Shown: in pieces, positions 17,479 to 53,706 of the stretch | Numbering within the stretch: position 1 is the first letter of the stretch | How the letters are laid out: each line of letters opens with the position of its first letter | DNA from: an uncultured Myxococcales bacterium | Lineage (GTDB): Bacteria; Myxococcota_A; Bradymonadia; UBA4248 | Direction of reading: 5' to 3' | Length of the DNA stretch: 64,000 bases | NCBI GenBank assembly: GCA_964454015.1 | Contig: CAYVQF010000021.1 | Span: forward strand, 13,890 to 77,889 | Notes under the pieces: generated by a model | Database searches by the model: none | What the model was told of the DNA's origin: nothing | Seen by the model: only the letters and a program-made list of their open reading frames with translations | Translations under genes and position numbers: made by a program

Positions 17479-17551
<73 letters not shown>

Positions 17552-19490: not shown

Positions 19491-20021
19491 ATGAAGTGGT
19501 ACATCGTGAACGCCCACTCTGGGTTTGAGAACAAGGCCAAGATAGCCCTACAGGAGCGCATCGAGGCTTCCACTCTGAAGGATTTCTTCGGAGACATCCT
19601 CATCCCGGTCGAGACGGTGATCGAAAGCAAAAAAGGGGAGAAGCGCACCACGACGCGGAAGTTCTTCCCCGGTTACCTCCTCGTGCAGATGGAGCTCACC
19701 AACGAGACCTGGCACTTGGTGAAATCGACGCCGAAGATCACCGGCTTCGTTGGCGGCGGCACCACCCCACCGGCGATGCCCGATGCCGAAGTGCAGCGCA
19801 TCCTCGGCCAGATGAAGGAGTCCATCGACAAGCCGGATCTCCTGCAGAGCATCGAAGAGGGCGACAATGTCCGGGTGACGGACGGTCCCTTCTCGAACTT
19901 CACCGGCAGTATTGAACAAGTTGACCGCGACAAGGGGCGGGTTCGGGTTCTGGTCAGCATCTTCGGGCGAGTCGTGCCCGTGGAACTCGAGTTTGGCCAG
20001 GTAGAAAAAGTGAGCGCGTGA
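19491..20021 (+). CDS. nusG: Transcription termination/antitermination factor NusG
   Basis: MKWYIVNAHSGFENK (NGN domain) and a C-terminal KOW (GDNVRVTDGPFSNFTGSI). Confidence 0.95.
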   Translation: MKWYIVNAHSGFENKAKIALQERIEASTLKDFFGDILIPVETVIESKKGEKRTTTRKFFPGYLLVQMELTNETWHLVKSTPKITGFVGGGTTPPAMPDAEVQRILGQMKESIDKPDLLQSIEEGDNVRVTDGPFSNFTGSIEQVDRDKGRVRVLVSIFGRVVPVELEFGQVEKVSA

Positions 20022-20068
20022 TCGCGCTTGTGCGCACACCAGTGCCGAAACATTTGGATTGAAGTGTC

Positions 20069-20494
<426 letters not shown>

Positions 20495-20509
20495 CGGAGG
20501 GTCGGCGCG

Positions 20510-21208
20510 ATGCCATTCAGAGGAAAGAAATACAAGAACGTTTTCACAAAAGTCGATCGGCAGAAGCGTTACGACAGCGTCAGCGAAGCCATCAAACTGG
20601 TCAAAGCCACGAGCTATACCAAGTTTGACGGCTCCGTCGATGTGGCTGTGCGGCTCGGCGTTGATCCGCGGCATGCGGATCAAATGGTTCGTGGCGCGGT
20701 TGTACTGCCCAATGGTATTGGCAAGACCGTTCGCGTCATCGTTTTCGCCGCGGGCGAGAAAGAACGCGAGGCCCGCGAAGCTGGCGCTGATATCGTCGGC
20801 TCTGACGACCTCGTCGAAAAAATCCAAGGCGGCTGGCTCGACTTCGACAAAGCCATCGCCACCCCCGACATGATGGGGAAAGTGGGCAAGCTCGGCCGGG
20901 TCCTCGGTCCGCGTGGCTTGATGCCCAACCCCAAGGTCGGCACGGTGACCATGGATGTCACCAAGGCCGTTCGCGAGCTCAAGGCCGGTCGGGTCGAGTT
21001 CAAGGTCGATCGCGCTGGGATCATCCATGCCCCCATCGGCCGCGTCTCTTTTACGCCCGAGAGCCTCGAAGAGAACTACCAAGCCCTCATCGACATGTTG
21101 ATGCGACTCAAGCCGGCGGCCGCCAAAGGCCAATACGTCAGGTCCATCACCTTCAGCGCCACCATGGGTCCGGGCGTCAAGGTCGATCCGTCCGTAGCTG
21201 GCGTCTGA
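20510..21208 (+). CDS. rplA: 50S ribosomal protein L1
   Basis: L1 family sequence ([21 protein letters not shown]). Position follows rplK. Confidence 0.95.
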
Positions 21209-21500
21209 TCCTGTCACTTTGTTCCTTTCTTGGTTGACAAAGGGCCCATGAACGCGTAAACACGCCGGGCCTTTTGTCGGCGGCCCCTGCACCGTCGGAG
21301 AAGTCGGTTCCTCAACGCGAGGATTAATGCCCAACGGGCGCCGGCCGAGCCGGAAGCATGGCTGACCCGAAATGTGACTTGCCTCTTAAAGGGCATCCTC
21401 TTCGGTACAACCATCGGTTCGGAACCCACCCCACCCGGGGTTGGCCTCTCCCGCGAGAACTCGGGCGCTCTTTACCCGTTATCCGCAACCGAGGCTTGTC
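21209..21500 (+). promoter_or_regulatory. rplJ 5' leader (L10(L12) autoregulatory leader region), with a weak internal promoter-like TTGACA
   Basis: A 290-nt untranslated gap between rplA and rplJ. In bacteria this gap carries the L10 leader. TTGACA at 21234 has a weak -10 (TAAACA). Confidence 0.4.
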
Positions 21501-22019
21501 ATGAACCGAGATCAGAAACGTGCCGCCATCGACGAGATGCGGACGCTCTTCAGCGATATGGACGCCATCGTCCTGGCTGATACTTCCGGCGTCGATGTCA
21601 ACACCATCAATAAAGTCCGCAGCATCTTCCGCGCTGAGGGTGTGCACTTCCGCGTCGTGAAGAACACCTTGGCCAAGCTCGCCCTCCAAGGCACCGAGCT
21701 CGAAGGCATCGCCAGCGCTTTCGTGGGCCCAACGGCTATCGCCCTCAAAGCAGGCGACCCCATCACGCCCGCCAAGATCGCCATCGAATTCGCCAAGGAT
21801 AACCCCAAATTCGAGGTCAAAGGCGGTTACCTGCCCGGCAAAGTCCTCGATGCCCAGGGCGTCGTCGCCTTGTCGAAGATGAAAGGCCGCCAAGAAATGC
21901 GTGCTGAGCTCCTCAGCATCTTCAAGGCGCCGCAGACCCAGTTCGTGGGTGTGATGAACACCATGGTTACCCAGTTCCTGGGCGTCCTCAACGCCCGCGC
22001 CGATAAACTTGAAGGCTGA
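21501..22019 (+). CDS. rplJ: 50S ribosomal protein L10
   Basis: [40 protein letters not shown]. The ATG at 21501 is preferred over the upstream extension. Confidence 0.9.
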
Positions 22020-22090
22020 GTTTCCCTTGGCATTTTTTCCTGTACCCTGTTGCATGGCCCGTCAATACGACGGCACACTTGGAGAGCCCC

Positions 22091-22474
22091 ATGTCCATTA
22101 GTGAAGAACAAGTCATTGAGTACCTCGAAAACCTCAACATCGTCCAGCTCAACAACCTGGTGAAGACCCTCGAGAGCAAGTGGGACGTCAAGGCCGCCTC
22201 TGGTGGTGCCGTGATGATGGCTGCTGCCGCGCCTGCCGCTGAAGCCGCCGCCGAACCCACCGAGTTCAAGGTGGTCTTGGCCGGTGTTGGCGACAAGAAA
22301 ATCCAGGTGATCAAAGAGATCCGCGCCATCACCGGTCTCGGCCTCAAAGAAGCCAAAGACCTGGTCGACGGCGCACCCGGCATCATCAAGGAAGGCGTGT
22401 CCAAGGAAGAAGCTGCCGACATGAAGTCCAAGATCGAAGCCTCTGGTGCCACCGTGGAAATCAAGCCCATGTAG
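22091..22474 (+). CDS. rplL: 50S ribosomal protein L7/L12
   Basis: [33 protein letters not shown], Ala-rich hinge, C-terminal [40 protein letters not shown]. Confidence 0.95.
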
Positions 22475-22507
22475 GCCACCTGTCCGCTTGGTGTCTCGAG
22501 AGCGTCC

Positions 22508-23068
22508 GTGGGTCACCCCGGGCGCTCTTCGTCGTTGAATGCCCACGTGGACCACTGCCCCTCGAGCATAGCTTTGAGCGAAAGTATCCCTGCGCAGCAA
22601 GTCCTTCTCCGGCCCCTGGCGATCCGCGATCTCTCTGGCGTACAGGATCTCTTCCTCGCGCTGACGGCTTGCCAGAACGATGCCTTCTCCGCCCTCCAAG
22701 AGAACCCCGTGCGCGTGTCCTACGAGATGCGCCGCCTCAGGCAGAACCTGCTCGCCGAGCAGCGTTATCTCTGCTTCGTGGCTGAGCATGAGGGGCGCTT
22801 GGCGGGCTACGCTGCGGGCGTCGTCGAGGTGCAGGCACCAATTTTCAAAGTCGACACCTATTGCTCCATCAATGAGGTCTTCGTGCAGGCCTCCTATCGG
22901 CGCCGGGGGCTGGGTCGCGCCCTGGTGACGGAGGTCCTCGCCGCGGCCCAGGCGATGGGGATTGGGTGGGCCAATGTGCACCTGGTGGGTGACGCCAGAG
23001 CAGCCGAGCCTTTCTTCGCCTCCCTGGGCTTTCACGTGGGTGCTTTGGAGCTGCGCAGCGCGTTGTGA
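22508..23068 (+). CDS. GNAT-family N-acetyltransferase, inserted between rplL and rpoB
   Basis: Acetyl-CoA binding motif RRRGLGRALV (Q/RxxGxG/A) inside a GNAT-type fold region. GTG start at 22508. An in-frame ATG lies further in. Confidence 0.6.
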   Translation: MGHPGRSSSLNAHVDHCPSSIALSESIPAQQVLLRPLAIRDLSGVQDLFLALTACQNDAFSALQENPVRVSYEMRRLRQNLLAEQRYLCFVAEHEGRLAGYAAGVVEVQAPIFKVDTYCSINEVFVQASYRRRGLGRALVTEVLAAAQAMGIGWANVHLVGDARAAEPFFASLGFHVGALELRSAL

Positions 23069-23108
23069 TCCGGCCTATGCATGAAACTGGCCAATTTCAG
23101 GAATAAGA

Positions 23109-23137
23109 GTTGACATCCTTGTCGCAAGCCAGTAGAT
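23109..23137 (+). promoter_or_regulatory. Sigma70-like promoter upstream of rpoB
   Basis: TTGACA (23109-23114), 17-nt spacer, TAGATT (23132-23137). Followed by a roughly 420-nt untranslated leader before the rpoB ATG at 23558. Confidence 0.5.
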
Positions 23138-23557
23138 TCCCGCCGCCCTGGTTTTGCGCGTGCCTGGCGCTGGCTCAGGGTGGCGTGCGCATCGACGACG
23201 GTGGATGCATCCCGAGGCCCGCGGGCCCCTGGGAGCGCTTTTGCAGTGGCACAACATGAGACCCGGCGTCAGACGCGGTGACGCTTTGGGAGGAGATGGA
23301 ATGGGATGGGAAGACTGCAAAAGGACGAGCTGGCCCGTGAGCGCTTGCGTTGTGCACGAACCTCGCTTTTTTGGCATTCTACCTTCGCGATCCCGAAAAA
23401 ATATTTGCCTTCGCTGCGGCGGAGGCCTGTGAATGATGAACAGCGCACCCCATCGTCCATAGCCGCCTGAGGACGCTCGGGCTGCAGCCATGGTCTTGCT
23501 GTCCATGGCTGCCGACGATGAAACGGTTGGGAACTGACGCGATACCGAGGAGAGCAG

Positions 23558-27676
<4,119 letters not shown>

Positions 27677-27795
27677 GCCAACGTGCCCGGTGCGCCCCCG
27701 AGGGGTGGCACCGGCGGCGCAACGGTCAAGAGAGCATCGAGCGTTAACCCATTGTGTAGATCATCGCCTGCGGGCGTTGGGTCGAGAGGTCGAAA

Positions 27796-31902
<4,107 letters not shown>

Positions 31903-33398: not shown

Positions 33399-35846
33399 AT
33401 GAAGCACTGGAATCAGCGTGGCCTGGCCTCGAGCCCTTGGCTCCTCTTCTCTCTCTTCGCTCTGGCATCCTTGAGCGCCGCCTGCGGTGCCGATCGCCAA
33501 GGCCCCAGTCCCAAGATCGAACGGGTCGAGCCCAACGTCATCCACACGGCCAACCAAGACGCCACGGTGACCCTCATCGGCACGGGCTTCTCCCCTGCCA
33601 TCGAAGGGGCCCTCGACGACCCCCGCGTGATGATGCCCAAGATCGAGCTCATCGGCCAAGACGGCACGGTCTACCACATCGATCAGGCCAACGTCTCCTT
33701 CCCCGCCGACGACATCTCAGGCACACGCCTCGTGGTCACCGTGCCGGCCCAGCTCGTCCCACCGCGCGCCCTGGGCGAACCCGACGCCATCTACGACCTC
33801 AAGGTGATCAACCCCGATGGCTCGAGCCACACCCTGACCGCTGCCATCACCGTACGCGCACCCTCGTTCTTCGCCATCACCTCCATCGACCCACCTTTCG
33901 CTTGCACCTGCGCCGATCAGCTCGTCACCATCGTCTCCGACGGTGCTTTCGTGTCCACCCCCGTCGTAGGCGTGCGCCCTGCCGACCAGAGCGATCTCAA
34001 CGATCTCTCCTTCCTGCAGCGCGTGGCCTTCGTCGACGCCAACACCCTCACGGCCGTCGTGCCGGCAGGGCTCCCGTTGGGCACCTACGATCTCGTGGTC
34101 ATCAATCCAGAGAGTGACGGCCGCATCGGCCTCCTCGAGGATTCCCTCCGCATCGTCCGCTTCCCCATCCCGCGCATCGTCCACATCCTCCCTGGGCGCG
34201 GCACCACCCAGGTCAACACCGGCTTGACCATCTTCGGGCGCGACTTCCGCGGCCCGGCGCGGGTCGAGCTCCTCAACCCATCCATGACGGTGGTCGAGTC
34301 CCTGACCCCGGCCCGGGTCACGGCGGAACAGATCGATGTCCAAGTCCCCACCACCCGCATGAGCGTCGGGCCCTACCTGGTGCGCGTCGTCAATGAAGAC
34401 GAAGAGACCTACTATTCTTACGCCAGCTTCCTCGTCACCAACCCGGCTGGCAACCTCAACACCTTCGAGCAAGACAGCCCCACGGTCATCGGGCGGCGCA
34501 TGGTCGCCGGCACCTCCGTCGCCGACGATCTGGGCAACCGCTATATCGTGGCCATCGGGGGCGACACGGGCCAGAACGGTGAGGTGCTCGACACCATCGA
34601 AAGGGCCCAACTCTCCAAGTTCGGCGCCCTGAGCGCCTGGCAAGTGCAGCGCAACACCCTCACGGTGCCGCGCCGCGGCGCATCGGCCGTGGCGCTGCCC
34701 CTCTTCAACCCTGCCTACTCCCCATATATCCCCGAAAAGACTTACGTCTATGTCGTCGGCGGTCGCGACGCCAGCGGCAACGTCCTGAACACGGTCGAAC
34801 GCGCCGTCGTGCTGAGCTCGACCGAAGCGCCAACCTTGCAAGCCGAACCCGCCGCGAGCGCGGGCAGCCTCGCTGCCGGCACCTGGTACTACAAAGTCTC
34901 GGCGGTCCTCGCCGCGGACGACGCCGATAACCCGGGCGGCGAGACCCTCCCCTCAGACGAGGCGATCATCCGCACCGGCGCGAACGGCGCCGTCACCTTG
35001 TCCTGGGCGCCCGTAACGGTGCGTGGAAGCGCCGCCGTGGCCTACCGGATTTACCGCAGCCCCGAAGTCGACGGTCGCTCCCAAGACGAACGCTTCCTCG
35101 CCGAGGTGACCACGACGTCCTACACCGACGACGGCTCACAGTCCACCACCGACGCGGCGCCGCACTTTCCCGGTGCCACTGGCGTCTTCCACGAGATCAA
35201 CCGCCGCATGACCATGCCGCGCTGGGGCCACCACGCGCTCCTCGTCCAAGGCGACGACGGCAACCGCCACTTGGCCGCCGTCGCCGGCAGCGCCGGCCAA
35301 GTGGTGCTCGACACCATCGAGTTCGCCGCTTTCGACGTCGACGGCAACCTGGGTGGCTTCAACCCATCGGCAGAAGTGTTGGCCGTCGGCCGGGTCTTTC
35401 CCGCGGCCGTGGTGCAGACCAAGGCCAACGTCGCCACTTACGACCAGAACGGCTCGCGCTTGTGGCTCGCCGGTGGCTACACCTCGACCGCCGCCACGGA
35501 CACCATCGAGTGGGCCGATTTCGGCACCAGCCTCGGTGCTTGGGAAACCCTCGGCAAGAAGGTGCTGGCCCGCGGCGGCTCCATGGCGGTCATCACCAAC
35601 CAGAAAGCCTTTTTCTTGGGCGGCGCCGGTGGCACCCCTGAGGCGCCGACGGCAGTGCGCACCGATGGGCGCGACTCCCAGTTCGACGGCGTAGGGATGC
35701 TCTCGGGCGCCGTCAACTCGACCGCCAGCTCTCTCCTCAGCCCGCGCGCCTTCGGGGTGGCCATCACGGGCGCCGGCTTCATCTACTTCGTCGGCGGCAC
35801 ATCCAACGGCGTCGACGCGGCCAACGCAGTGGAGCGCACCTTCTAG
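33399..35846 (+). CDS. Secreted lipoprotein with IPT/TIG-like and Kelch-type beta-propeller repeats
   Basis: Lipobox LSAAC. Repeated ...VVGG/AIGG... blades (YVYVVGGRDASGN, RYIVAIGGDTGQNG, FIYFVGGTSNG) typical of Kelch propellers. The N-terminal Ig-like segments are Thr/Val-rich. Confidence 0.5.
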   Translation: MKHWNQRGLASSPWLLFSLFALASLSAACGADRQGPSPKIERVEPNVIHTANQDATVTLIGTGFSPAIEGALDDPRVMMPKIELIGQDGTVYHIDQANVSFPADDISGTRLVVTVPAQLVPPRALGEPDAIYDLKVINPDGSSHTLTAAITVRAPSFFAITSIDPPFACTCADQLVTIVSDGAFVSTPVVGVRPADQSDLNDLSFLQRVAFVDANTLTAVVPAGLPLGTYDLVVINPESDGRIGLLEDSLRIVRFPIPRIVHILPGRGTTQVNTGLTIFGRDFRGPARVELLNPSMTVVESLTPARVTAEQIDVQVPTTRMSVGPYLVRVVNEDEETYYSYASFLVTNPAGNLNTFEQDSPTVIGRRMVAGTSVADDLGNRYIVAIGGDTGQNGEVLDTIERAQLSKFGALSAWQVQRNTLTVPRRGASAVALPLFNPAYSPYIPEKTYVYVVGGRDASGNVLNTVERAVVLSSTEAPTLQAEPAASAGSLAAGTWYYKVSAVLAADDADNPGGETLPSDEAIIRTGANGAVTLSWAPVTVRGSAAVAYRIYRSPEVDGRSQDERFLAEVTTTSYTDDGSQSTTDAAPHFPGATGVFHEINRRMTMPRWGHHALLVQGDDGNRHLAAVAGSAGQVVLDTIEFAAFDVDGNLGGFNPSAEVLAVGRVFPAAVVQTKANVATYDQNGSRLWLAGGYTSTAATDTIEWADFGTSLGAWETLGKKVLARGGSMAVITNQKAFFLGGAGGTPEAPTAVRTDGRDSQFDGVGMLSGAVNSTASSLLSPRAFGVAITGAGFIYFVGGTSNGVDAANAVERTF

Positions 35847-42529: not shown

Positions 42530-45500
42530 ATGACGGACTCGAAGAATCGCGGCTATGAGAAGGTCGAAACGTGGATCGACTTGGTGGCCAATGAGCACGA
42601 GGTGCTGGCCTATTGGCAGCAGGAAGGCATCTTCGACAAGTTGCGCGCGCGCAATGCCGACGGCGAGGTCTTCTCTTTCCTCGACGGTCCCATCACCGCC
42701 AACAACCCGATGGGTGTCCATCACGCCTGGGGGCGCACGCTGAAGGACGCCTTTCAGCGCTTCCACGCGATGCACGGGCGCGCCTTGCGTTATCAAAATG
42801 GCTTCGACTGCCAAGGCCTGTGGGTCGAGGTGGAGGTCGAGAAGGAGCACGGGTTCCGCTCGAAGAAGGAGATCACCGACTTCGGGATCGACCGCTTCGT
42901 CGAGGCCTGCAAGGCGCGCGTGCGCAAGTACTCCGCCGTGCAGACGGAACAATCCATTCGCTTGGGGATGTGGATGGATTGGGACGACTCCTACTACACC
43001 ATGTCCGATGAAAACAATTATTGCATCTGGACTTTCCTGAAGAAGTGCTTCACCCGGGGCAAGATCTATCGCGGCTCCGACGTGATGCCTTGGTCGGGTC
43101 GCTCGGGTTCGGCTTACTCACAGATGGAGGTCATCGAGGGGCGCAAGCTGGTGGCCCACACCTCTCTCTTCGTCAAGTTCCCCCTCCGCGAACGCCCAGG
43201 CGAAAACCTTTTGGTGTGGACCACGACGCCGTGGACGCTCACATCCAACGTGGCCGCGGCGGTCAACGTCGATCTGGATTACATCAAGTTGCGTTCGCGT
43301 CGCGACGGCGAGCTTTTCTATTTCGCGGCAGAGAACCTCAACTTCAAGCGCCTCGACAAGCAGTACAAAGAGAAGCGCTGGGTCGACGGGGTCCCGCGCC
43401 TCAAAACCATCGCCCAGATCTTCAATGAGCGCGGTGGCTTCGATCTGGAAGGCACGGTCAAGGGCGCCGATCTCGTGGGCCTGAGCTACGTCGGCCCCTT
43501 CGACGAATTGGAAGGGGCACAGCTCCCTGGCGGCTTTCCCTTCACCAACGCCGCCGTTGCCGACAGCGCCGTGACCGCGCACCGAGTCATCGACGGTGGT
43601 CGGGACTCGCACGGTGGCGCCGTGGTCGTGGCGGGCGAAGGTACGGGCATCGTGCACATCGCCCCGGGTTGCGGCGACGTCGACCACGAGCTGGGGGTGA
43701 AGCTTGGCCTCCCCATGGTCGCTCCCCTCGACGAAGCGGCGGCTTTCTTGCCACCCTTTGGCTTCCTCGCGGGTAAAAACGCCACTGCCCCTGAGACGGT
43801 GGAGCTCATCGTCAACTATCTGAAAGAGCGGGGCACCCTGGTCGCGACGGAGCTCTACCCTCACGTCTATCCCCACTGCTGGCGTTCTGGCGAAGAGCTG
43901 GTCTTCAGGATGGTCGACGAGTGGTACATCAAGATGGATTGGCGCGACGAGATCATCAAAGTGGTGGACGACATCCGCTGGATCCCGGACTACGGCCGGG
44001 ACCGTGAGATCGAGTGGCTGACCAACATGCGCGACTGGATGATTTCCAAGAAGCGCTTCTGGGGTTTGGCCCTACCCATTTGGGTCTGTGAGAAGTGCGA
44101 GCACTTCGAGGTGATCGGCTCACGGGAAGAGCTGCAAGAACGCGCCGTAGCGGGCTGGGACGTCTTCGACGGCCACTCTCCCCACCGACCGTGGATCGAC
44201 GCCGTGAAAATCGCCTGCAGCCAATGCGGGGCCCAAGCCAGCCGCGTCGAAGACGTGGGCAATCCCTGGCTCGACGCCGGGATCGTGCCCTATTCGACGG
44301 TTCACTATCGCTCGGACCGCGACACTTGGCGGAAGTGGATCCCTGCAGACCTGGTCCTGGAATGCTTCCCGGGTCAGTTTCGCAACTGGTTCTATTCCCT
44401 CCTCGCCCTGAGCACCATGATGGAGGGGATCGCCCCCTTCAAGAACCTCTTGGGGCATGCCTTGGTCCGTGACGGCGAAGGCAAAGAGATGCACAAGTCC
44501 ACGGGGAACGCCATCTGGTTCAACGACGCCGTCGAAGAGGTGGGCGCCGACGTGATGCGCTGGCTCTACGTGTGGCAGAACCCGGTGGTGAACTTGAACT
44601 TCAGCATCGGCGATGGCGACAGCAACGCGAGCGGGGCCTGCCGCTCGCTGCGCGAGGTGCGCGGCGGCTTCATCAATACCCTCTGGAACACTTACGCCTT
44701 TTTCACCAACTACGCTCGCCTGGCGAGTTGGCGTCCGGGCGAGGGCGAAGCGCTGCCCTTTGCGGCGCGCCCCGAGTTCGACCGCTGGATTCTGACGGAG
44801 CTGCAGCAAAGCATCGGCGAGTGCCGCGCGGGCTTCAACGACTACGACACGCGGCGCGCCGCCATCGCCATCGAGGCTTTCGTCGATGACCTGTCGAACT
44901 GGTACGTGCGCCACAACCGACGGCGTTTCTGGAAGACCGAAGGCGACACGACCCAGTCCAACGCCGCCTTCGCTACCCTGTGGACCTGCCTCTATGACCT
45001 GACCCGGCTCATCGCGCCGATGATGCCCTTCTTGGCCGAGACCATGCACGCCAACCTGGTGCGCAGTGTCCTGCCCGATGCACCGTCTTCGGTGCACCTC
45101 GAGAGCTACCCCCAGGAAGACCCGGCGCTGGTCGATGAGAGCCTGCGCGACGAGATGCGCGCCATCATGCGGATCACCAGCCTGGCCCTCTCGGCCCGGG
45201 ACTGCCAGAAGCTCAAGGTGCGGCAGCCGCTCGCCAAACTGACCATTGGCCCCAACGACGCCGTGGAGCACCAAGCGGCCCTGCGCTTCACGTCCATGTT
45301 GTTGGAAGATCTCAACGTCAAGACGCTGCACGTCGAAGCGCCCGGGACCCCGAGCCCGCTGAGCTACGAAATCAAGCTCAACTTCAAGACCCTGGGTCCG
45401 CGCTATGGCAAGCAGATGAAGGCCATCAGCGCCGCCCTGGAGTCGGTGCGTGAGCCGTTGCTGGCCGCGGTCAAGGCCGAGTCCCCCTACACCTTCTTCG

Positions 45501-45883
45501 TTGAAGGCGGCCAGGTCACCCTCGACAAAGAAGACGTGCTCTTGGTCGCCCAAGCGTCACCGGACCTCGCCGTCGCTGAAGAGAAGGGGACCTGGGTCGC
45601 CCTGGACACCCACCTCGACGACGCGCTGCGGACAGAAGGGATGATGCGCGACCTCCTGCGCCGGCTGCAAATGCTGCGCAAGGAGATCGGCTTGGAGGTC
45701 GAAGACCGCATCGCCGTGCATTGGCACAGCACCTCCCCGGCCCTCCAAGCGGTCTTCGCGACCTGGGATGCCTACATCGCGGACGAGCTCTTGGCGCAAC
45801 TCGAAGCACAACCCGAGGGCGACGGCGGACACCACCTCGACATCGAAGGTGAGCGTCTGTGGCTTCGCATCACGAAAATCTGA
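42530..45883 (+). CDS. ileS: Isoleucine--tRNA ligase, type 2 (eukaryote-like)
   Basis: 1117 aa. HIGH-region PMGVHHAWG. KMSKS variant EMHKSTGN. An editing domain is present. Length and C-terminus fit type-2 IleRS. Confidence 0.8.
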   Translation: MTDSKNRGYEKVETWIDLVANEHEVLAYWQQEGIFDKLRARNADGEVFSFLDGPITANNPMGVHHAWGRTLKDAFQRFHAMHGRALRYQNGFDCQGLWVEVEVEKEHGFRSKKEITDFGIDRFVEACKARVRKYSAVQTEQSIRLGMWMDWDDSYYTMSDENNYCIWTFLKKCFTRGKIYRGSDVMPWSGRSGSAYSQMEVIEGRKLVAHTSLFVKFPLRERPGENLLVWTTTPWTLTSNVAAAVNVDLDYIKLRSRRDGELFYFAAENLNFKRLDKQYKEKRWVDGVPRLKTIAQIFNERGGFDLEGTVKGADLVGLSYVGPFDELEGAQLPGGFPFTNAAVADSAVTAHRVIDGGRDSHGGAVVVAGEGTGIVHIAPGCGDVDHELGVKLGLPMVAPLDEAAAFLPPFGFLAGKNATAPETVELIVNYLKERGTLVATELYPHVYPHCWRSGEELVFRMVDEWYIKMDWRDEIIKVVDDIRWIPDYGRDREIEWLTNMRDWMISKKRFWGLALPIWVCEKCEHFEVIGSREELQERAVAGWDVFDGHSPHRPWIDAVKIACSQCGAQASRVEDVGNPWLDAGIVPYSTVHYRSDRDTWRKWIPADLVLECFPGQFRNWFYSLLALSTMMEGIAPFKNLLGHALVRDGEGKEMHKSTGNAIWFNDAVEEVGADVMRWLYVWQNPVVNLNFSIGDGDSNASGACRSLREVRGGFINTLWNTYAFFTNYARLASWRPGEGEALPFAARPEFDRWILTELQQSIGECRAGFNDYDTRRAAIAIEAFVDDLSNWYVRHNRRRFWKTEGDTTQSNAAFATLWTCLYDLTRLIAPMMPFLAETMHANLVRSVLPDAPSSVHLESYPQEDPALVDESLRDEMRAIMRITSLALSARDCQKLKVRQPLAKLTIGPNDAVEHQAALRFTSMLLEDLNVKTLHVEAPGTPSPLSYEIKLNFKTLGPRYGKQMKAISAALESVREPLLAAVKAESPYTFFVEGGQVTLDKEDVLLVAQASPDLAVAEEKGTWVALDTHLDDALRTEGMMRDLLRRLQMLRKEIGLEVEDRIAVHWHSTSPALQAVFATWDAYIADELLAQLEAQPEGDGGHHLDIEGERLWLRITKI

Positions 45884-45888
45884 GGCCG

Positions 45889-46779
45889 ATGGTCGCCAGC
45901 TCCAGCACTTCCCCCGGTACGACGCCGCTGCGCATGGGCGCGGTGCCGTGGATCGACGCCGGCCATGCCGTCACCAGCTATACGGCCATCCTCCTCGATG
46001 CCTACGGGGTTCTGGTCGACGCCTCTGGCGTGATCGCTGGGGCTACGGCCTTCATCGACCACCTCAACGCCCAGGGCAAGCCCTACTACATCCTGACCAA
46101 CGACGCCGCGCGCCTGCCGCAGAGCTGCGCCGAATTCTACCAGTGCCATGGTTTGGCCATCGCGCCCGAGCGCATCATCACCGCGGGCTCGCTCCTGGCG
46201 CCCTACTTCGCCCAACACGGCCTACACGGAGCTCGCTGCGTGGTCCTCGGCCCCCGTGACGCCAGCACCTACGTCCGTGAGGCCGGCGGCGTGGTCGTTG
46301 CGCCCGACGAAAGAGAGAGCGTCGATGTCGTCGTGGTCTGCGCCACGGAACGCGAGATGGTGCCCCAAATCGACGCGGCGCTCTCCATGTGTGGCCGCAA
46401 GCTGGAAGCCGGCGGCCCGCCACCCCAGATCCTCTTGCCCAACCCGGACATCATCTACCCCAAGGGCGACGGCGCCTTTGGCATCACGGCAGGTGCCGTA
46501 GCGGCCATGCTGGAGATCGCCTTGCGCGCCCGCTTCCCTCACGCCGAGGTGCGCGCCCATCCCATGGGCAAACCCTATGCGCCCATCTTCGAAGCGGCCA
46601 TCGCCGCCGCCGGGACGCGCCGAGTCCTCCACATTGGGGACCAAATCGACACCGACGTCGAAGGCGCCTGGGGCGTGGGCATCGACTGCGCCCTCGTCGC
46701 CACAGGCGTCGCGCGCCTCGACGACGACGTTCGCATCACCCGCGCCCCGACCTACCGCCTCAGAGATCTGCGCCTCTAA
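45889..46779 (+). CDS. HAD-superfamily hydrolase, subfamily IIA (NagD/UmpH-like)
   Basis: ILLDAYGVL N-terminal motif, ILTND motif II, and the HIGDQIDTD motif IV region. Confidence 0.6.
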   Translation: MVASSSTSPGTTPLRMGAVPWIDAGHAVTSYTAILLDAYGVLVDASGVIAGATAFIDHLNAQGKPYYILTNDAARLPQSCAEFYQCHGLAIAPERIITAGSLLAPYFAQHGLHGARCVVLGPRDASTYVREAGGVVVAPDERESVDVVVVCATEREMVPQIDAALSMCGRKLEAGGPPPQILLPNPDIIYPKGDGAFGITAGAVAAMLEIALRARFPHAEVRAHPMGKPYAPIFEAAIAAAGTRRVLHIGDQIDTDVEGAWGVGIDCALVATGVARLDDDVRITRAPTYRLRDLRL

Positions 46780-46842: not shown

Positions 46843-48132
46843 TCAGTCTTGGTCTTGTCCCACGGGTCCATCCAGGCGCGGCGAGCGTCCGCGCAGGACC
46901 TCATAGGCGACCCGGTTGCCGTACTGAGCCGCGCGGGAGAGCGAAGAATAGCTCAAAAACTCGAGCTCCGCCGCGTGCTTGAGACTGTTGGGGACGGAGG
47001 CGCGGTGGTAGCGATTGGCAGCCACGTCGTGCAGGAGCGCCGCGAGGGCAGCATCACCGGCGCCGCTGGTGTTGCACAGGCGCTCTGGTCCACCCAGATA
47101 AGGGTGGATGTGGCTGAAGATCTGGAGGGGGCGATGACAGTCGCGCCGCCGCACCAGCCGGGAATACTCCCAGCGGTTGTAGTCGGGGATGGACTTGGAG
47201 ACGATGGCCTCGCGGGTGAGGCGTTTGACCGAGTCGTCGGTGTAACCCGCCAAGGTCAGGCCGCGCGATCCCTCGGTGACCACGGCCACATCGACCCAAT
47301 CGAGGAGCTTGCGGCAGGCCAAGAGTGGATCCGATTCGTCCGTGAGGGCCTCGGCTTCACGCGCGTTCATGGCGGCGATGGTGACGTAGCCGTCGAGGAG
47401 GTCGATGAGCTCTTTGCGCATCCGCCGCACCAGGGTCGCCGTCCCCAGGCCAAAAGCGATGGGGACATCCGCGGCATGGGCGACCTCCATCAGACGCATG
47501 GCAGCTTGGGCGATGGGTCGATCCGGGTTGGCCAGGCAGTAAAGGGAGGTCAAAGCGACCGAAGCGCCTTGAACCACCTCTAGGGGGATCGCCTCGGCCG
47601 GGTAATCTCCTGAAGCCCCAGGTGAGACGGCAAAGGAACGCTCGCCGTCGGGGGTGAAGCAGGTCACGGCGGTCCCCACTTGGCCGCTGACGGGGATGAG
47701 GTGGTCGAGGGAGAGGGCTTTGGGCGACTGGGCAACGTAGGCAAAAGCCGCGCTGTGGGGCGCGATGCTCTCGGGGATGGTCCCCAACAAGATAGCCGGC
47801 TCACCGCTGAGGTGGGTGAAGTTGCTCAAGGTGTTGGCCACGGTGCCGCCGGCGGCGTAGCGCCAGCGCAACCCCGCCGCGCGAATTTTGCTCAAGAGCA
47901 CCTCGAGCATCTCCGGCGCAAAATGCACCGACTCCCCGGGGATGAGCCCGAGGTCGTGGAGCAGATCCAGCGGGCAGGCTTGGATCTCGAGGTCGACGAG
48001 GACCTCGTCGAGGCCTACGGCATACCAACTGGGTTCGGTCTGCACGTCGACCCCGGCCACCACGGTGCGCTTCTCAGTGACGGGAAAGTAGTACTTGGCT
48101 TCGCGTGGTCCTGGGAATTGCACAGCGCACAC
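46843..48132 (-). CDS. gsk: Inosine-guanosine kinase (PfkB family)
   Basis: Collinear with E. coli Gsk across the length: KYYFPV, GGTVANT, MNAREAEALTDESDPLLA...LDWVDV, NTSGAGDAALAALLHDVAANRYHRASVPNS, SPRL tail. Confidence 0.85.
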   Translation of the reverse strand: MCAVQFPGPREAKYYFPVTEKRTVVAGVDVQTEPSWYAVGLDEVLVDLEIQACPLDLLHDLGLIPGESVHFAPEMLEVLLSKIRAAGLRWRYAAGGTVANTLSNFTHLSGEPAILLGTIPESIAPHSAAFAYVAQSPKALSLDHLIPVSGQVGTAVTCFTPDGERSFAVSPGASGDYPAEAIPLEVVQGASVALTSLYCLANPDRPIAQAAMRLMEVAHAADVPIAFGLGTATLVRRMRKELIDLLDGYVTIAAMNAREAEALTDESDPLLACRKLLDWVDVAVVTEGSRGLTLAGYTDDSVKRLTREAIVSKSIPDYNRWEYSRLVRRRDCHRPLQIFSHIHPYLGGPERLCNTSGAGDAALAALLHDVAANRYHRASVPNSLKHAAELEFLSYSSLSRAAQYGNRVAYEVLRGRSPRLDGPVGQDQD

Positions 48133-48301
48133 CTCTCTTGGGGGTCACCCTAGGGCGAACCGCGATAGGCCAGGCAGGGTAAGGTCCTTTGTCTCCCGAT
48201 GCAACCAAGATCGGACGCGTGGCTCCCCCCAGCGGCGCTCGCCCATGCACCGCAACGCCGCACGCTTTCTCTACCTCGGCGCGCTTGGCGCGCGCCCCAT
48301 A

Positions 48302-48349
48302 CCCCACCAAAAAAGTCAGCTACCGCTCTGGTAGAGCTTCAAGCGGTAG
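48302..48349 (-). terminator. Rho-independent terminator of the DnaI-like gene (minus strand)
   Basis: On the minus strand, stem AGCTCTACC/GGTAGCT overlaps the last codons, then GACTTTTTTGG follows. Confidence 0.45.
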
Positions 48350-49134
48350 TCGCTCCCGATGAGCGACATGGGCTCGCACATCTGGTAAATCCGGCTCTCG
48401 GCGCGCTCGCCGATGCGGTCGTCGAGGGCGTCGGCCTTGGCCCCGCTGGGCTGCATGGCCTTGGGAAAGTAGTTGGAGGCAAAGAGCGTGGTCAGCGAGG
48501 TGTCGTTGTAGCGCCGGGTGATGAGCTCGTCGACGATGCGCAGCTCAAAGTCATTGCAGCGACCTTTCCCGAGCTCGTCGATGGCCAAGACGGGCACCTT
48601 GACCAGGGGCTCGAGGATCTCGGCCTCGGAGCGGTTCTCCGCATAGAGCTTGCGCAGCTCCCCGAGGAGGTGGCTGAACTCGATGTAACGACAGGCGACC
48701 CCCATCTCCAGGCTCATATAGCGCAGCATGGCGACCAAGAGGTGGGTCTTGCCGGTGCCGACCCCGCCGACCAACAAATAGCCTCGGGCTCCGGGTCTGA
48801 AACGCGCCAAGTAGGCACCAATCGCTTCGAGCAATGGCCCGTGATTGGCCTGGTGGGGGATGAAGGTTTCGAGGCTGGCCTCGGCATAACGCGCCGGAAC
48901 GCGCGCCTGATTGAAGCGCTCGATGCGGCGGTCCAGCGACGCCCCCGGGCACGGCCTCAAGGTGCGGTAGCCCCGGGCATCGTAGCTGGCGAGGTGCGCT
49001 GTCCCTTGGCAGAGCGGGCAGTGGTCGATGTTGATGGCCGGGCGCTCTGCCACGGCCCACGCCCCTTGGGCGCGAACCAAGGGCTGGCCAACCTTGGCGA
49101 GCAAACACTGGGTGAGATCATGGGGAGCGCTCAT
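48316..49134 (-). CDS. DnaC/DnaI/IstB-family AAA+ ATPase with an N-terminal zinc ribbon (putative helicase loader)
   Basis: N-terminal CPLCQG...C zinc-ribbon-like motif. Walker A GGVGTGKTHL, Walker B LAIDELG, and an Arg-finger region RRYND. No adjacent IstA transposase. Confidence 0.65.
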   Translation of the reverse strand: MSAPHDLTQCLLAKVGQPLVRAQGAWAVAERPAINIDHCPLCQGTAHLASYDARGYRTLRPCPGASLDRRIERFNQARVPARYAEASLETFIPHQANHGPLLEAIGAYLARFRPGARGYLLVGGVGTGKTHLLVAMLRYMSLEMGVACRYIEFSHLLGELRKLYAENRSEAEILEPLVKVPVLAIDELGKGRCNDFELRIVDELITRRYNDTSLTTLFASNYFPKAMQPSGAKADALDDRIGERAESRIYQMCEPMSLIGSDYRLKLYQSGS

Positions 49135-49149
49135 CGGACCTCGTCGCAG

Positions 49150-49797
49150 TTAGGGACCCACATCCAACAAAGCATGCACGGCGAAGTGACGCAAGAGGGC
49201 TGCCTCGAAGTGCGCCTGCACATAGGCGGCCGCGCCTTCTGGGCTCATCTGGGCCGCGCGCGCTTGGCATTGGCGCTGGCTCTCATGTCGCAGGTGCCCA
49301 CACTCACCCTTTGGCAAGGCAGCCTCCAGCTCCACCATGATCTGCCGGCGCACCCGCAGCCATAATGCCGTGGGATCCACCCCCTCTTCAATCTGCGCGC
49401 GGTGCAGGCTGACCCAGGCGCGGCGCAAGACCCGCTTGGCCGCGGCCGGCGTGTCGCCCTGCGTCCCCAAACGCTCGATGAGGGCGCAGTAACGCGCCAC
49501 GGCCGGCGCGGCAGCGGGCGCATCAGCGCCCCGAGCGGGGTGGGCCTGGTGGTAGGCCTTGATGGCCGCCTCCACCTCGCGGCTGAAAGCGGCGAGGGTG
49601 CGCGGGGTGGTCGTCGCGCGCGCCAGCGCACGATCCAAGGCGCGGATCACCGCGTCGGCCGGCACGCCGCTCTCTTCCCACTGCAGCACCACCGCCTGAT
49701 CCCGCGGCGAGAGGTTGAGACCCGCGCCAAGGTTGTGCCCTTTCCAAGCCTCGAGGGCGGCGAGGAAGGCCGCCGATGGACGCGACTCATGCATGCT
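49150..49797 (-). CDS. Hypothetical protein upstream of the DnaI-like ATPase (possible DnaD/DnaB-like partner)
   Basis: Alpha-helical Ala/Arg-rich protein. Same strand, 15-nt gap to the downstream AAA+ gene. Overlaps the fabH 5' region by 11 nt. Confidence 0.3.
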   Translation of the reverse strand, partial: SMHESRPSAAFLAALEAWKGHNLGAGLNLSPRDQAVVLQWEESGVPADAVIRALDRALARATTTPRTLAAFSREVEAAIKAYHQAHPARGADAPAAAPAVARYCALIERLGTQGDTPAAAKRVLRRAWVSLHRAQIEEGVDPTALWLRVRRQIMVELEAALPKGECGHLRHESQRQCQARAAQMSPEGAAAYVQAHFEAALLRHFAVHALLDVGP

Positions 49798-50806
49798 GCG
49801 CCGACCACCGCAACAGGGCGCCGCCCCAAGTGAAGCCAGAGCCAAACGCCACCAACGCGAGCAAGGCCCCCGGAAAGATCCGCCCGGCGGCCACGGCCTG
49901 ATCGAGGGCGATGGGGATCGACGCCGCCGTGGTGTTGCCCACCAGAGCGATATTGGTGAGCACCTTCTCGGGGGCGATCTCTAGCATGCGCCCCAGCAAC
50001 TCGGTGATGCGCTGATTGGCCTGATGTGGCACCAAAAAATCGATGGCGGCCACCTCGAGACCCGCCGCGTCGAGGAGGCCTTGGGTGCACTCGCGCATCC
50101 GGGTGACGGCGTGGCGAAAGACCGTGCGCCCGTTCATGCGAGGCAGGTGGATGCCTTCGGCCAACAAGTCCGGGCTGACGCGCTGCGGGAAGCGAGACGA
50201 CGCCGGACCCTCGCACCACAGTTCGCGGGCGTGGGCGCCTTCGGCCCAGACCTGCGTGGCCACGACCCCACGCACGTCTTCGGCGCAGGCCTCGAGGACG
50301 ACTGCCCCGGCGCCATCACCGAAGAGCACCGCCAGGTCCCGCCCTGCTGGCGAAAAATCGAGGCCCGTGGACTGCAACTCAGCCCCGATGAGGAGGACGC
50401 AGCGGTGGACGCCAGCGCGGATGAGGGCGTCGGCGACTTGCAGGCCGTACACGAAGCCCGCGCATTGGTTGCGCAGATCGTAGGCCGCTATCGGCGGACC
50501 GCCCAGGGCGGACTGCACCAAGCACGCGCAACCGGGAAAGGTGTAGTCAGGCGAAAGGGTGGCGAAGAGGATGGCGTCAACATCGCTCACCTGGCGTCGG
50601 GCGGCGCCCAGGGCGCGCTCGGCGGCAATGGTCCCCATGACCGAAGCGGTCTCACCAGGCGCCGCATAGTGGCGCGCCTCGATGCCCGTGCGCGTGCGGA
50701 TCCACTCGGGATCCGCGCCGCAGATGGCCGCGAGCTCAGCGTTGCTCACCACCCGCTTGGGTAGATAATGGCCAGTACCGGTGATCCGTGCGGCCAGGGC
50801 GGGCAT
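49787..50806 (-). CDS. fabH: 3-oxoacyl-[acyl-carrier-protein] synthase III
   Basis: MPALAARITGTGHYLPKRVVSNAEL, active-site region NQCAGFVYGL (Cys), His and Asn regions (VPHQANQRI, GNTTAAS). GGAGGAG RBS. Confidence 0.92.
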   Translation of the reverse strand: MPALAARITGTGHYLPKRVVSNAELAAICGADPEWIRTRTGIEARHYAAPGETASVMGTIAAERALGAARRQVSDVDAILFATLSPDYTFPGCACLVQSALGGPPIAAYDLRNQCAGFVYGLQVADALIRAGVHRCVLLIGAELQSTGLDFSPAGRDLAVLFGDGAGAVVLEACAEDVRGVVATQVWAEGAHARELWCEGPASSRFPQRVSPDLLAEGIHLPRMNGRTVFRHAVTRMRECTQGLLDAAGLEVAAIDFLVPHQANQRITELLGRMLEIAPEKVLTNIALVGNTTAASIPIALDQAVAAGRIFPGALLALVAFGSGFTWGGALLRWSAQHA

Positions 50807-50850: not shown

Positions 50851-53706
50851 CTACCCGATCTTCTCCAAGCGCTGCAAGCCCGCCAAGAGCTTGACCCGAT
50901 CCGCCGCGAGGGCGTTCATCTTGTCGCGCTCGGCGGCGACCACGTTCTCGGGCGCGCGATCGACGAAGGCCGGGTTCTCGATCTTTTTGGTGACCTGGGC
51001 GAGCTCCTTGTCGAGCTTGGCCAGGGCCTTGCTCAGGCGCGCCTTCTCTTCGGCGAAGTCGATGAGGTCTGCCAGGGGCACCACCAGCTCCATGCCGTCG
51101 GCCACGGTGGTGGCGCTGGGCGTGGGGCGCGCCGCCTGCGCCGGGTGCACGGCGATGGCGCTGACCTTGGCCAGGGCTTGGATGAAGGGCCCCATGAGAT
51201 CACAGCAGGCGCGATGCTCTTCTTGGTCGGTGAAAACATGCAGCAGGGCGATGCGCTTGCCCGGCGGGATATTGGCCTCACCGCGCACATTGCGCAGGGC
51301 CTGGATCATGGCGATGGCCTGCTGGGCTGGCTTGGCACGCCCGTCGGCTTTGAAGGCTTCCTGGACCTTGGGCCAGGGCGCCAACATGATCGAGCGTGGA
51401 TGCCCAGGCGCCTTGGGCAAGCTCTGCCAGATCTCTTCGCTGACGTAGGGCGCAAAAGGGTGGAGGAGGCGCAAGACCGTCTCGAGGACATGGACCAGAA
51501 CCTGGCGCGTCACCGTCTTGGCCGCGTCCTTGGCCGCGTCCTGGTCGTAGAGGATGGGCTTGGCCAGCTCGATGTACCAGTCGCAGAAGGTGCTCCACAA
51601 AAAGTCATAGATGCCTTGCGCGGCGTCGTTGAAGCGGAAGTCCTCCAGGCTCTGGGTGACGCGGGCCACGCATCCTTGCAGGGCGTCGAGGATCCAGGCG
51701 TCCACGGGTGAGAGCTGCGCCGGCGTGAAAGGCAGGGTACCCTCGGCGCTACTGCCGGCGGCGCTCACCGTGGTGCCCTCCAAGTTCATGGCGACGAAAC
51801 GCGCCGCTTGCCAGAGCTTATTGATAAAGGCGCGATAGCCCTCGACCCGCCGCACGTCGAGGCGAATGTCGCGCCCCTGGGCCGCGTACATCGCCAAGGT
51901 GAAGCGCAAGGCGTCCGCACCCTGCGGCTCGATGCCCTCGGGGTAATCATCGAAGAGCTGGCGGCAGGCCTCGCGCTCATCTTCGGGGACGCTCGCCGGC
52001 GTCACGCCGTAGACCACGTGCAGGGGATCGATGACGTTGCCGTAGGTCTTGGACATCTTGCGCCCTTCCTTGTCGCGGATGAGGGCGTGAAAATAGACCG
52101 TCGCAAAGGGGGCCTCGTCCATGAAGTACTCGCCCATCATCATCATCCTGGCCACCCAGAAGAAGATGATGTCCGCTGCGGTTTCCATGACCGTCGTGGG
52201 ATAGAACTTGCGCAGCGTCGCCGTCGACTCGGGCCAACCCATGGTGCTGAAAGGCCACAGGGCCGACGAAAACCAAGTGTCGAGCACGTCCGGGTCTTGG
52301 ATGAAGGTCGTGCCACCACACTCGGGACAGGTCGCGGGGCACGCGCGGTCGACCAACGGGACGGCGCCCGTCCCGATGCGCAGCTCGGCATCGGCGTGGC
52401 CCGGATGATGGATGCGGTGCAGGTCCTTGCCCGAACACTGGGTGCAATACCAGGCCGGGATCTGGTGCCCCCACCAGAGCTGACGCGAGATGCACCAGTC
52501 GCGAATGTTGTGCATCCAGTTGAAGAAGGTCTTCTCCCACATGGCGGGGATCATGCGGGTGCGGCCGCGCTCGACGGCCTCGATGGCGGGCTTGGCCAAG
52601 ACCTCGGCGTTCACCCACCACTGCGGCAGAAGCAGCGGCTCGACCAGGGCCCCCGAGCGCTGAGAGCGCGCCGGCATGAAGGTGTGGGCCTCGACGCGCA
52701 CCAAATAACCCTGGGCCTCGAGATCGCGCACCACCGCCTCGCGACACGCCTCGCGGCTCAGGCCGCGGTAGGCTTCGGGCGCGGTGTCGGTCATGCGGGC
52801 GTCCAGGCCAATGACCTGAATGCGCGGCAGGCGATTGCGCACGCCACAGGCGAAATCGTTGAAGTCGTGGGCCGGGGTGATCTTGACAGCCCCCGTGCCA
52901 AAGGCGGGATCGGCTACAACCCCATCGGCAATGATGGGAATGGTGCGCCCCGTGAGGGGCAGCAGGCATTGCTTGCCGATGACGTCTTGGTAACGCGGGT
53001 CATCAGGGTGCACCGCAACGGCCGCGTCGCCGAGCATGGTCTCGGGGCGCGTGGTCGCCACGACGATGCGGCGGTCCGTCCCCTCGATGGGATAGGCGAT
53101 GTGCCACAGGTGCCCAGCCTCGGGCTCCTGATCGACCTCGAGATCACTCAGGACGGTCTGGGCCACGGGGTCCCAATTGACCAAGCGCTCGTCGCGGTAA
53201 ATCAGCCCCTCCCGGTGCAAGCGCACGAAGGCTTCCCGCACGGCGACGCTCAAGCCCTCGTCCATGGTGAAGCGCTCACGCTCCCAGTCACAAGCCGCGC
53301 CCAAGACCTTGAGCTGGCTGATGATGTTCCCCCCTTTCTCCTCCTTCCACTGCCAGACGCGGCGCAAAAAGGCCTCGCGCCCCAGGGCGTGCCGACTCAG
53401 CCCCTCCTTGGCGAGCTGCCGCTCGACCATGACCTGGGTGGCGATCCCCGCGTGGTCCGTCCCGGGCAGCCACAAGGCCTCAAAGCCCTGCATCTTCTTA
53501 TAGCGCGTCAGGATGTCCTGAATGGTCACGAAGATCGCGTGCCCCATGTGCAACTTGCCCGTGACGTTCGGCGGCGGAATCACGATACAGAAGGGCTCTT
53601 TGTTCGAGTGCTCGTCGGCGTGGAAGAGCCGCTCTTGCAGCCAAAAGGCGTACCATCGCGCCTCGACATCATGGGGGCTATAAGCTTTGGCAAGTGACTG
53701 AGACAT
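50851..53706 (-). CDS. valS: Valine--tRNA ligase
   Basis: 951 aa. HIGH PPNVTGKLHMGHA. KMSKS KMSKTYGN. C-terminal coiled coil. Confidence 0.95.
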   Translation of the reverse strand: MSQSLAKAYSPHDVEARWYAFWLQERLFHADEHSNKEPFCIVIPPPNVTGKLHMGHAIFVTIQDILTRYKKMQGFEALWLPGTDHAGIATQVMVERQLAKEGLSRHALGREAFLRRVWQWKEEKGGNIISQLKVLGAACDWERERFTMDEGLSVAVREAFVRLHREGLIYRDERLVNWDPVAQTVLSDLEVDQEPEAGHLWHIAYPIEGTDRRIVVATTRPETMLGDAAVAVHPDDPRYQDVIGKQCLLPLTGRTIPIIADGVVADPAFGTGAVKITPAHDFNDFACGVRNRLPRIQVIGLDARMTDTAPEAYRGLSREACREAVVRDLEAQGYLVRVEAHTFMPARSQRSGALVEPLLLPQWWVNAEVLAKPAIEAVERGRTRMIPAMWEKTFFNWMHNIRDWCISRQLWWGHQIPAWYCTQCSGKDLHRIHHPGHADAELRIGTGAVPLVDRACPATCPECGGTTFIQDPDVLDTWFSSALWPFSTMGWPESTATLRKFYPTTVMETAADIIFFWVARMMMMGEYFMDEAPFATVYFHALIRDKEGRKMSKTYGNVIDPLHVVYGVTPASVPEDEREACRQLFDDYPEGIEPQGADALRFTLAMYAAQGRDIRLDVRRVEGYRAFINKLWQAARFVAMNLEGTTVSAAGSSAEGTLPFTPAQLSPVDAWILDALQGCVARVTQSLEDFRFNDAAQGIYDFLWSTFCDWYIELAKPILYDQDAAKDAAKTVTRQVLVHVLETVLRLLHPFAPYVSEEIWQSLPKAPGHPRSIMLAPWPKVQEAFKADGRAKPAQQAIAMIQALRNVRGEANIPPGKRIALLHVFTDQEEHRACCDLMGPFIQALAKVSAIAVHPAQAARPTPSATTVADGMELVVPLADLIDFAEEKARLSKALAKLDKELAQVTKKIENPAFVDRAPENVVAAERDKMNALAADRVKLLAGLQRLEKIG

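Follow-up and report, generated by a model that had tools for sequence, protein, structure and literature searches.

Does the chromosome of a myxococcotal bacterium encode an ATP-dependent helicase loader of the DnaC/DnaI class, together with a protein partner of its own? The question is raised by two adjacent minus-strand genes in a stretch of 64 000 nucleotides (nt) from an uncultured Myxococcales bacterium (contig CAYVQF010000021.1, positions 13 890-77 889 of the forward strand), which we refer to as the window throughout. The downstream gene encodes an AAA+ ATPase and the upstream gene a helical protein, here called X; both open reading frames (ORFs) were confirmed in the ORF list. The original prediction, made from the sequence alone, had described a DnaC/DnaI-like AAA+ loader with an N-terminal zinc ribbon and, immediately upstream of it, a possible co-loader. 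We consider it probable, at roughly 60%, that X and the AAA+ protein constitute a helicase-loading module, domesticated long ago and resident on the chromosome, of the DnaD-like/DnaC-like type known from phages and Firmicutes. The evidence that carries this reading consists of the family placement of the ATPase, the integrity of its motifs, the conservation and tight spacing of the gene pair, an inheritance that looks vertical and, in some lineages, synteny with the origin gene cluster. The two genes and the parts of them that are discussed below are as follows, with positions counted from the first letter of the window.

49150-49794, minus strand: X, with its ATG at 49794, a 214-residue all-helical protein and conserved upstream partner of the AAA+ gene
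49543-49773, minus strand: residues 8-84 of X, an N-terminal domain of four helices in which conservation is highest, a candidate DDBH2-like domain of the DnaD/DnaB type
49135-49149, minus strand: spacer of 15 nt between X and the AAA+ gene, with a Shine-Dalgarno-like GAGG inside
48316-49134, minus strand: AAA+ gene, encoding a 272-residue ATPase of the DnaC/DnaI class
48907-49134, minus strand: residues 1-76 of the AAA+ protein, a predicted zinc-ribbon N-terminal domain (Cys10, Cys39, Cys42 and Cys62) and linker helix
48742-48768, minus strand: Walker A motif GGVGTGKTH (residues 123-131 of the AAA+ protein), read from the sequence
48574-48591, minus strand: Walker B motif VLAIDE (residues 182-187 of the AAA+ protein), read from the sequence

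Family and domain structure of the AAA+ protein

The sole Pfam model passed by the AAA+ protein is IstB_IS21 (PF01695; 43.5 bits against a cutoff of 24.1, residues 119-221), a broad model that also spans DnaC and DnaI. By sequence, its closest solved relative is the DnaC protein of Aquifex aeolicus (PDB 3ECC; phmmer E = 1.3e-23, 31% identity over residues 82-264), followed in the PDB sequences by a streptococcal DnaI-like primosome protein (1.4e-9), E. coli DnaC (2.3e-7), Geobacillus DnaI (1.7e-6) and IstB (2.7e-5). The AlphaFold model of the protein, with a predicted local distance difference test score (pLDDT) of 92.7, retrieved its structural neighbours by Foldseek in the same order, with 3ECC at E = 1.9e-13, 31% identity and a target-normalised template-modelling (TM) score of 0.85. 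The PHROG profile phrog_50, 'DnaC-like helicase loader', matches residues 39-267, that is from Cys39 onward (E = 1.7e-34), and some homologues of the protein have been auto-annotated as 'DNA replication protein DnaC'. The scores of the protein lie below every NCBIfam equivalog cutoff tested: 77 bits for PRK08116 (cutoff 189), 54 bits for IstB NF038214 (cutoff 200), 49.8 bits for DnaI NF006505 (cutoff 228) and 39.9 bits for enterobacterial DnaC NF005931 (cutoff 357). The similarities support the assignment of the protein to the DnaC/DnaI/IstB clade as a homologue of DnaC/DnaI-class loaders and not of the IS21 helper IstB, as originally proposed; the ATPase is an ordinary member of this known clade.

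It is on this point that descent from IS21 has to be weighed, in which the protein would be a transposition helper of the IstB type that was domesticated or left behind. The Pfam model named above and the NCBIfam IstB score would fit such an origin, and membership of the PF01695 clade is common to both proteins. The equivalog cutoff lies far above that score, however, the match to IstB is the weaker one, IstB structures rank below those of DnaC and DnaI, and the N-terminal domain of the AAA+ protein is of a different, zinc-ribbon kind. Neither an istA gene nor phage structural genes were present in any homologous locus inspected, and the search for inverted repeats around the pair in the window yielded only short repeats at chance level, none of them like those of an insertion sequence. 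The two signs that would have betrayed an IS21 element were thus looked for and not found at the locus, and we rejected an IS21 remnant as extremely improbable. An anti-phage defence system was likewise rejected: PADLOC returned only noise at the level of the P-loop for the AAA+ protein and no match for X.

The catalytic motifs are intact. Among 36 diverse aligned homologues, Gly123, Gly126, Gly128, Lys129, Thr130 and His131 of Walker A and Asp186 and Glu187 of Walker B are invariant, as are Asn221, Arg240, Arg248 and Arg264, which are candidates for the sensor I, arginine-finger and sensor II residues. From this invariance the protein would be expected to be an active ATPase.

In the model, the N-terminus of the AAA+ protein consists of two β-hairpins (residues 19-30 and 47-61) that bear the conserved cysteines, followed by a helix (residues 63-76) and the AAA+ domain. 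Residues 1-62 are predicted to adopt a zinc-ribbon-type fold and to bind zinc, in agreement with the zinc ribbon and Walker motifs read in the original prediction. Cys10, Cys39, Cys42 and Cys62 are retained in 118-120 of 120 homologues. Four further cysteines, at query positions 13, 32, 35 and 64, are found in most members of the family, and all four are missing in the clade of the window (residues 10-62, window positions 48949-49107, compared with homologues P0017-P0120). This pattern suggests an ancestral module with eight cysteines and two zinc ions that was reduced to a single site in the clade of the window; because the four cysteines were lost jointly, it also suggests that the two sites were interleaved and that one was discarded. 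Cys-rich variants of this N-terminal domain appear to be undescribed.

The likeness to B. subtilis DnaI that had been claimed for the protein holds for its architecture, with a predicted zinc-binding N-terminal domain, a linker and an AAA+ domain in the same arrangement. It does not extend to the DnaI family proper: DnaI_N (PF07319) gave no match at E <= 0.1, and the DnaI equivalog score given above falls well below its cutoff. The resemblance of the N-terminal domain to that of DnaI is therefore architectural and not a demonstrable homology. With Aquifex DnaC, likewise encoded on the chromosome of a bacterium that is neither an enterobacterium nor a Firmicute, the comparison is confined to the ATPase domain, the only part in the crystal construct (PDB 3ECC/3EC2); the zinc-ribbon domain has no counterpart there. 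We know of no X-like partner of Aquifex DnaC.

The partner protein X and its family

A word-indexed search with X returned only X itself. Its positional partner at a related locus (L005), where the AAA+ protein is 50% identical to that of the window, aligns with it over the full length at 29% identity (E = 1e-14). With a hidden Markov model (HMM) built iteratively from such positional partners, X was recognized immediately before the AAA+ gene in 29 loci of Myxococcota/Bradymonadia, of which about 25 are distinct; they include loci of the cultured genera Corallococcus (C. coralloides DSM 2259, locus COCOR_02557), Archangium (A. gephyra, AKJ02402.1) and Anaeromyxobacter. In the loci that bear it, X is always upstream of, and on the same strand as, the AAA+ gene; of 24 distinct loci, 8 show an overlap of 4 nt between the X stop codon and the AAA+ start codon, and in most others the two codons are separated by <= 21 nt. 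The spacer of 15 nt in the window, noted in the original prediction, was confirmed and falls within this range. When 1.84 billion cluster representatives were searched with a profile, 1021 relatives of X were recovered at E <= 1e-3. Among the 150 relatives listed, lengths are mostly ~190-290 residues, and the 41 for which annotation was shown carry no Pfam domain and are named only 'hypothetical protein'. Identity to the X of the window is ~17-27% across the family, and the X of the window has no significant match to a characterized family in Pfam or in a profile comparison with PDB sequences. X is thus a real, sizeable and unannotated family, tied to the AAA+ ATPase and fast evolving, and as a conserved partner family it appears to be undescribed. 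At five loci of the Myxococcota type (L008, L013, L014, L020 and L099) no X lies upstream of the AAA+ gene, whose neighbours are instead YbeY, a protein with HEAT repeats or a large divergent gene.

AlphaFold models X as an all-helical protein of nine helices (pLDDT 74.5), in line with the helical protein of the original prediction. The upstream gene is a genuine and conserved partner of the AAA+ gene in the same orientation. The four-helix N-terminal domain is modelled with confidence and bears the family-invariant residues Gly23, Leu28, Ser29, Asp32 and Trp39. This domain gives structural matches of the DnaD/DnaB type together with sequence matches below threshold. When 41 X-family members were scanned singly, DnaB_2 (PF07261) was the only recurrent Pfam family (15 of the 41, best E = 0.0046) and 'DnaD-like helicase loader' the only recurrent PHROG annotation (19 of the 41); the seven DnaB_2 matches with coordinates all fall at residues 24-62, which correspond to the conserved motif. 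Direct comparisons at the sequence level were not significant, either in the profile comparison with PDB sequences, in hhalign alignments of X with single phage DnaD/O-like proteins or in a search of bona fide DnaD-domain proteins with the X HMM. As a calibration of such searches, true DnaD-domain proteins match each other at E values of only 0.002-0.24. We consider it likely that the N-terminal domain of X is a DDBH2-like domain. The idea of a DnaD/DnaB-like co-loader is weakly supported, being favoured by the sub-threshold DnaB_2 and PHROG matches and not by the direct tests.

X does not reproduce the full architecture of B. subtilis DnaD/DnaB. Its DDBH2-like domain is single and itself N-terminal, the winged-helix domain DnaD_N/DDBH1 was not matched in X or in any of the 41 family members, and the C-terminal half is helical and specific to the family. 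The gene arrangement matches that of phage replication modules, such as those of Listeria phage PSU-VKH-LP041 and Lactobacillus phage LL-Ku, in which a gene for a DnaD-domain or O-like protein precedes, and overlaps, the gene for a DnaC-like loader. The loaders of these modules align with the AAA+ protein from the Cys39 region onward and at only 23-32% identity (GenBank phages). Their partners carry HTH_36, DnaB_2 or DnaD_N above threshold, whereas X does not, and the pair described here, unlike the phage modules, sits in a core chromosome.

Inheritance and relation to DciA

The core character of the window is evident from its gene content (valS, fabH, ileS, dnaX, rpoB, rpoC, tuf and five tRNA genes), and the guanine-plus-cytosine (GC) content of the locus equals that of its surroundings. 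A neighbour-joining tree of the AAA+ proteins resolves four groups: a clade of Myxococcota, most of which have X; a clade of Acidobacteriota, which lack it; an outgroup of phage and Firmicute proteins; and a small pair of Oligoflexales type. Identity among the chromosomal homologues is 36-59%, and a search of 2.9 million viral contigs gave a best relative with no more than 32% identity. As in a domesticated dna[CI], the gene behaves as a resident that is congruent with taxonomy: its clades follow the phyla, it is present in cultured genera and its setting is core. On these sequence comparisons, inheritance of the gene looks vertical.

These data also bear on whether the pair was left behind by a prophage or plasmid as a replication module that is now decaying and does nothing for the host. 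In favour of such a remnant, phage replication modules typically show this two-gene layout, and X evolves fast, with the low identities given above. The pair is intact, however, in about 25 lineages that share 36-59% identity in the AAA+ protein, its catalytic residues are invariant, and the GC content at third codon positions (GC3) is of the coding type in both genes (0.81 for X and 0.86 for the AAA+ gene). There are no phage genes nearby, the GC content matches that of the housekeeping neighbours, no close viral relative exists among the contigs searched and X is missing from viral loci. A remnant is therefore highly improbable, and a prophage island was rejected, given the GC content, the housekeeping neighbours and the 32% identity of the best viral match.

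The Acidobacteriota homologues (loci L045, L047, L049, L050, L058, L063-L065, L067, L074 and L090, from Bryobacterales and others) show 28-33% identity and have a shorter N-terminus that starts near Cys39. The genes upstream of them encode a conserved family of ~130-180 residues, of which the two members scanned are accB, the gene for the biotin carboxyl carrier protein (BCCP), and the others cluster with these. We judged this accB gene to be unrelated to X.

In three genomes, namely two Myxococcales and one Bradymonadia metagenome-assembled genomes, the pair lies inside the classical origin gene cluster, in the order (recF-dnaN-)dnaA / rpmH-rnpA-(yidD)-yidC-jag-gyrB-X-AAA+. In other phyla dciA often occurs in the dnaA-dnaN-recF-gyrB neighbourhood, and the position of the pair after gyrB in these three genomes is comparable to that of dciA. 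DciA (DUF721, PF05258) is the presumed functional analogue, as a helicase operator, but its fold is unrelated and it has no ATPase. Outside the pair, the flanks vary across lineages and include TPR proteins, an HNH protein, FHIPEP, kinases and tmk.

In the current picture, DciA and a phage-derived DnaC/DnaI are alternatives that are not combined in one genome, and the δ-proteobacterial lineages are users of DciA. Brezellec et al. (2016; PMC5109545) reported seven dna[CI] domestications, none of them in δ-proteobacteria, and no genome that retains both dciA and a domesticated dna[CI]. In its Supplementary Data 1, the rows for Stigmatella, Myxococcus, Anaeromyxobacter, Haliangium and Sorangium each give a single dciA together with one or more PF01695 proteins, exactly one in Stigmatella; Corallococcus is not part of the data set. 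Because members of the AAA+ family are present in Anaeromyxobacter itself and in sister genera of those listed, one of these PF01695 proteins is very probably its orthologue, and we infer that an orthologue exists in Myxococcus xanthus. The family would then probably coexist with DciA in Myxococcales. In the same source the Aquificae are counted as a domestication of dna[CI] at the expense of dciA, in contrast to the Myxococcales, which are listed with dciA; the rows suggest that the loss of dciA associated with a domesticated dna[CI] has not taken place here. The AAA+ loader is therefore probably not a replacement for DciA, and the implication of the original prediction that it acts in place of DciA is probably wrong. 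The likely coexistence of the pair with DciA appears to be undescribed, and a full-text literature search found no paper on a helicase loader of Myxococcota.

If the pair is a loading module, the zinc-ribbon N-terminal domain of the AAA+ protein would be expected to serve as its helicase-binding module, and the ATPase domain would oligomerize on the DnaB hexamer and single-stranded DNA so that the ring is opened or assembled. X would be a fast-evolving adaptor that links the loader to DNA, DnaA or PriA, and the loading event served might be initiation at oriC, restart or a developmental round of replication. Four elements of this scheme are our proposals: that DnaB is bound, that X acts as an adaptor, which loading event is served, and how work would be shared with DciA.

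The reported presence of DciA gives weight to a different interpretation, in which this pair of the DnaC clade has a client other than the replicative helicase, for example because it regulates DnaA or some other DNA transaction, and DciA is the sole loader. One dciA is listed in each of the Myxococcales rows named above, and PMC5109545 reports no genome with both dciA and a domesticated dna[CI]; the AAA+ protein falls short of the DnaC and DnaI equivalog cutoffs and has weak matches to Hda and ZapE models, and X has no significant match to a characterized family. The similarity to helicase loaders nevertheless lies far above that to Hda, DnaA or ZapE, the gene order copies that of phage loader modules and the pair adjoins gyrB and the dnaA cluster in three genomes. 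We regard a non-helicase client as unlikely, if clearly less so than a remnant or an IS21 helper.

Several observations weigh against the assignment of the pair as a helicase-loading module. No curated DnaC, DnaI or IstB equivalog model is passed by the AAA+ protein on its sequence. The seven DnaB_2 matches with coordinates all score 12-17 bits, below the 22-bit cutoff, and come from one subclade of X, and the X of the window has no DnaB_2 match. The X-family HMMs miss bona fide DnaD-domain proteins and find no X in any ORF of the viral loci, and a Foldseek search of X against viral structures gave nothing significant. X does not lie upstream of the AAA+ homologues of the Myxococcota type at L008 and the four loci named with it, and it is altogether missing from the Acidobacteriota homologues, where the upstream gene in the examples checked encodes BCCP. 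Linkage to the origin is not general, because the flanking genes vary so widely. Finally, to judge from the rows of Supplementary Data 1, the DciA of Myxococcales could already cover helicase loading.

Beyond the module itself, we tentatively suggest that Myxococcota run the ancestral DciA side by side with a vertically inherited, ATP-dependent loader of the DnaC/DnaI class and its co-loader X, that Acidobacteriota likewise keep both systems but with a partnerless loader, and that the eight-Cys N-terminal domain found in most Myxococcota homologues sampled binds two zinc ions. This broader proposal is possible but doubtful. If true, it would contradict the finding of Brezellec et al. that dciA and dna[CI] exclude one another, and would imply a division of labour, for example between initiation at oriC and PriA-type restart or between vegetative and developmental replication. 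A phylum-conserved DnaC-class loader with a dedicated partner, sometimes near dnaA-gyrB, would be an exception to the either/or picture, and the pair, with Corallococcus, Archangium and Anaeromyxobacter as cultured carriers, would be a natural system in which to ask why the two loading strategies are usually exclusive. It would also provide a first functional lead for the ~1000 unannotated cluster representatives of the X family.

Gene layout and surroundings in the window

The genes and signals that flank the pair are as follows.

50851-53706, minus strand: valS
49787-50806, minus strand: fabH (NCBIfam PRK09352, 350 bits)
49787-49794, minus strand: overlap of 8 nt between the fabH stop codon (49789-49787) and the start codon of X, ATGCATGA
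48308-48334, minus strand: weak terminator-like hairpin and T-run over the stop codon of the AAA+ gene, suggestive
46843-48132, minus strand: PfkB-family gene, similar to inosine/guanosine kinases

Two details of the initial annotation required correction. The upstream gene had been read as 216 residues from position 49797 and as overlapping the start of fabH; it encodes 214 residues from the ATG at 49794, matching the same 214-residue gene called on four other contigs of the same organism (L001-L004), and the overlap is with the stop codon, at the 3' end of fabH. The best explanation of the layout is that X and the AAA+ gene form a two-gene, translationally coupled operon. A gap of 183 nt separates the AAA+ gene from the next gene. 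Terminator-like sites such as the one over its stop codon are no more numerous in the region than expected from shuffled sequence. An antisense ORF of 388 residues over both genes (48199-49365, plus strand) was rejected as an artefact of the high GC content, with a GC3 of 0.65 versus 0.81-0.86 for the two genes.

The five-gene layout from valS to the PfkB gene recurs on other contigs of the same uncultured organism. Linkage to fabH was rejected as a functional clue, since fabH lies upstream only in the window and in one relative (L005). The accB gene of the Acidobacteriota loci and the fabH gene of these two loci are both neighbours from fatty-acid synthesis, possibly by coincidence.

Elsewhere in the window, a housekeeping cluster (17113-31902) comprises genes for tRNA-Thr, tRNA-Tyr, tRNA-Gly and tRNA-Thr, tuf, tRNA-Trp, and then rpoB (23558-27676) and rpoC (27796-31902); the GC content at 17-30 kb is 0.57-0.63, below that of the rest of the window (0.65-0.74). 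The gene dnaX, for the γ/τ clamp-loader subunit of DNA polymerase III (6198-8060, plus strand), is ~40 kb from the pair and not adjacent to it. Large ORFs at 1078-3318, 19673-21334 and 33399-35846 have no Pfam match at E <= 1e-5. An acyl-CoA reductase of the LuxC type is encoded at 8999-10528 (minus strand), and a 693-residue protein at 14758-16839 (plus strand) has a weak radical-SAM match. The longest-ORF start of a HAD-family hydrolase gene (45859-46779, plus strand) lies 25 nt within the 3' end of ileS (42530-45883, plus strand).

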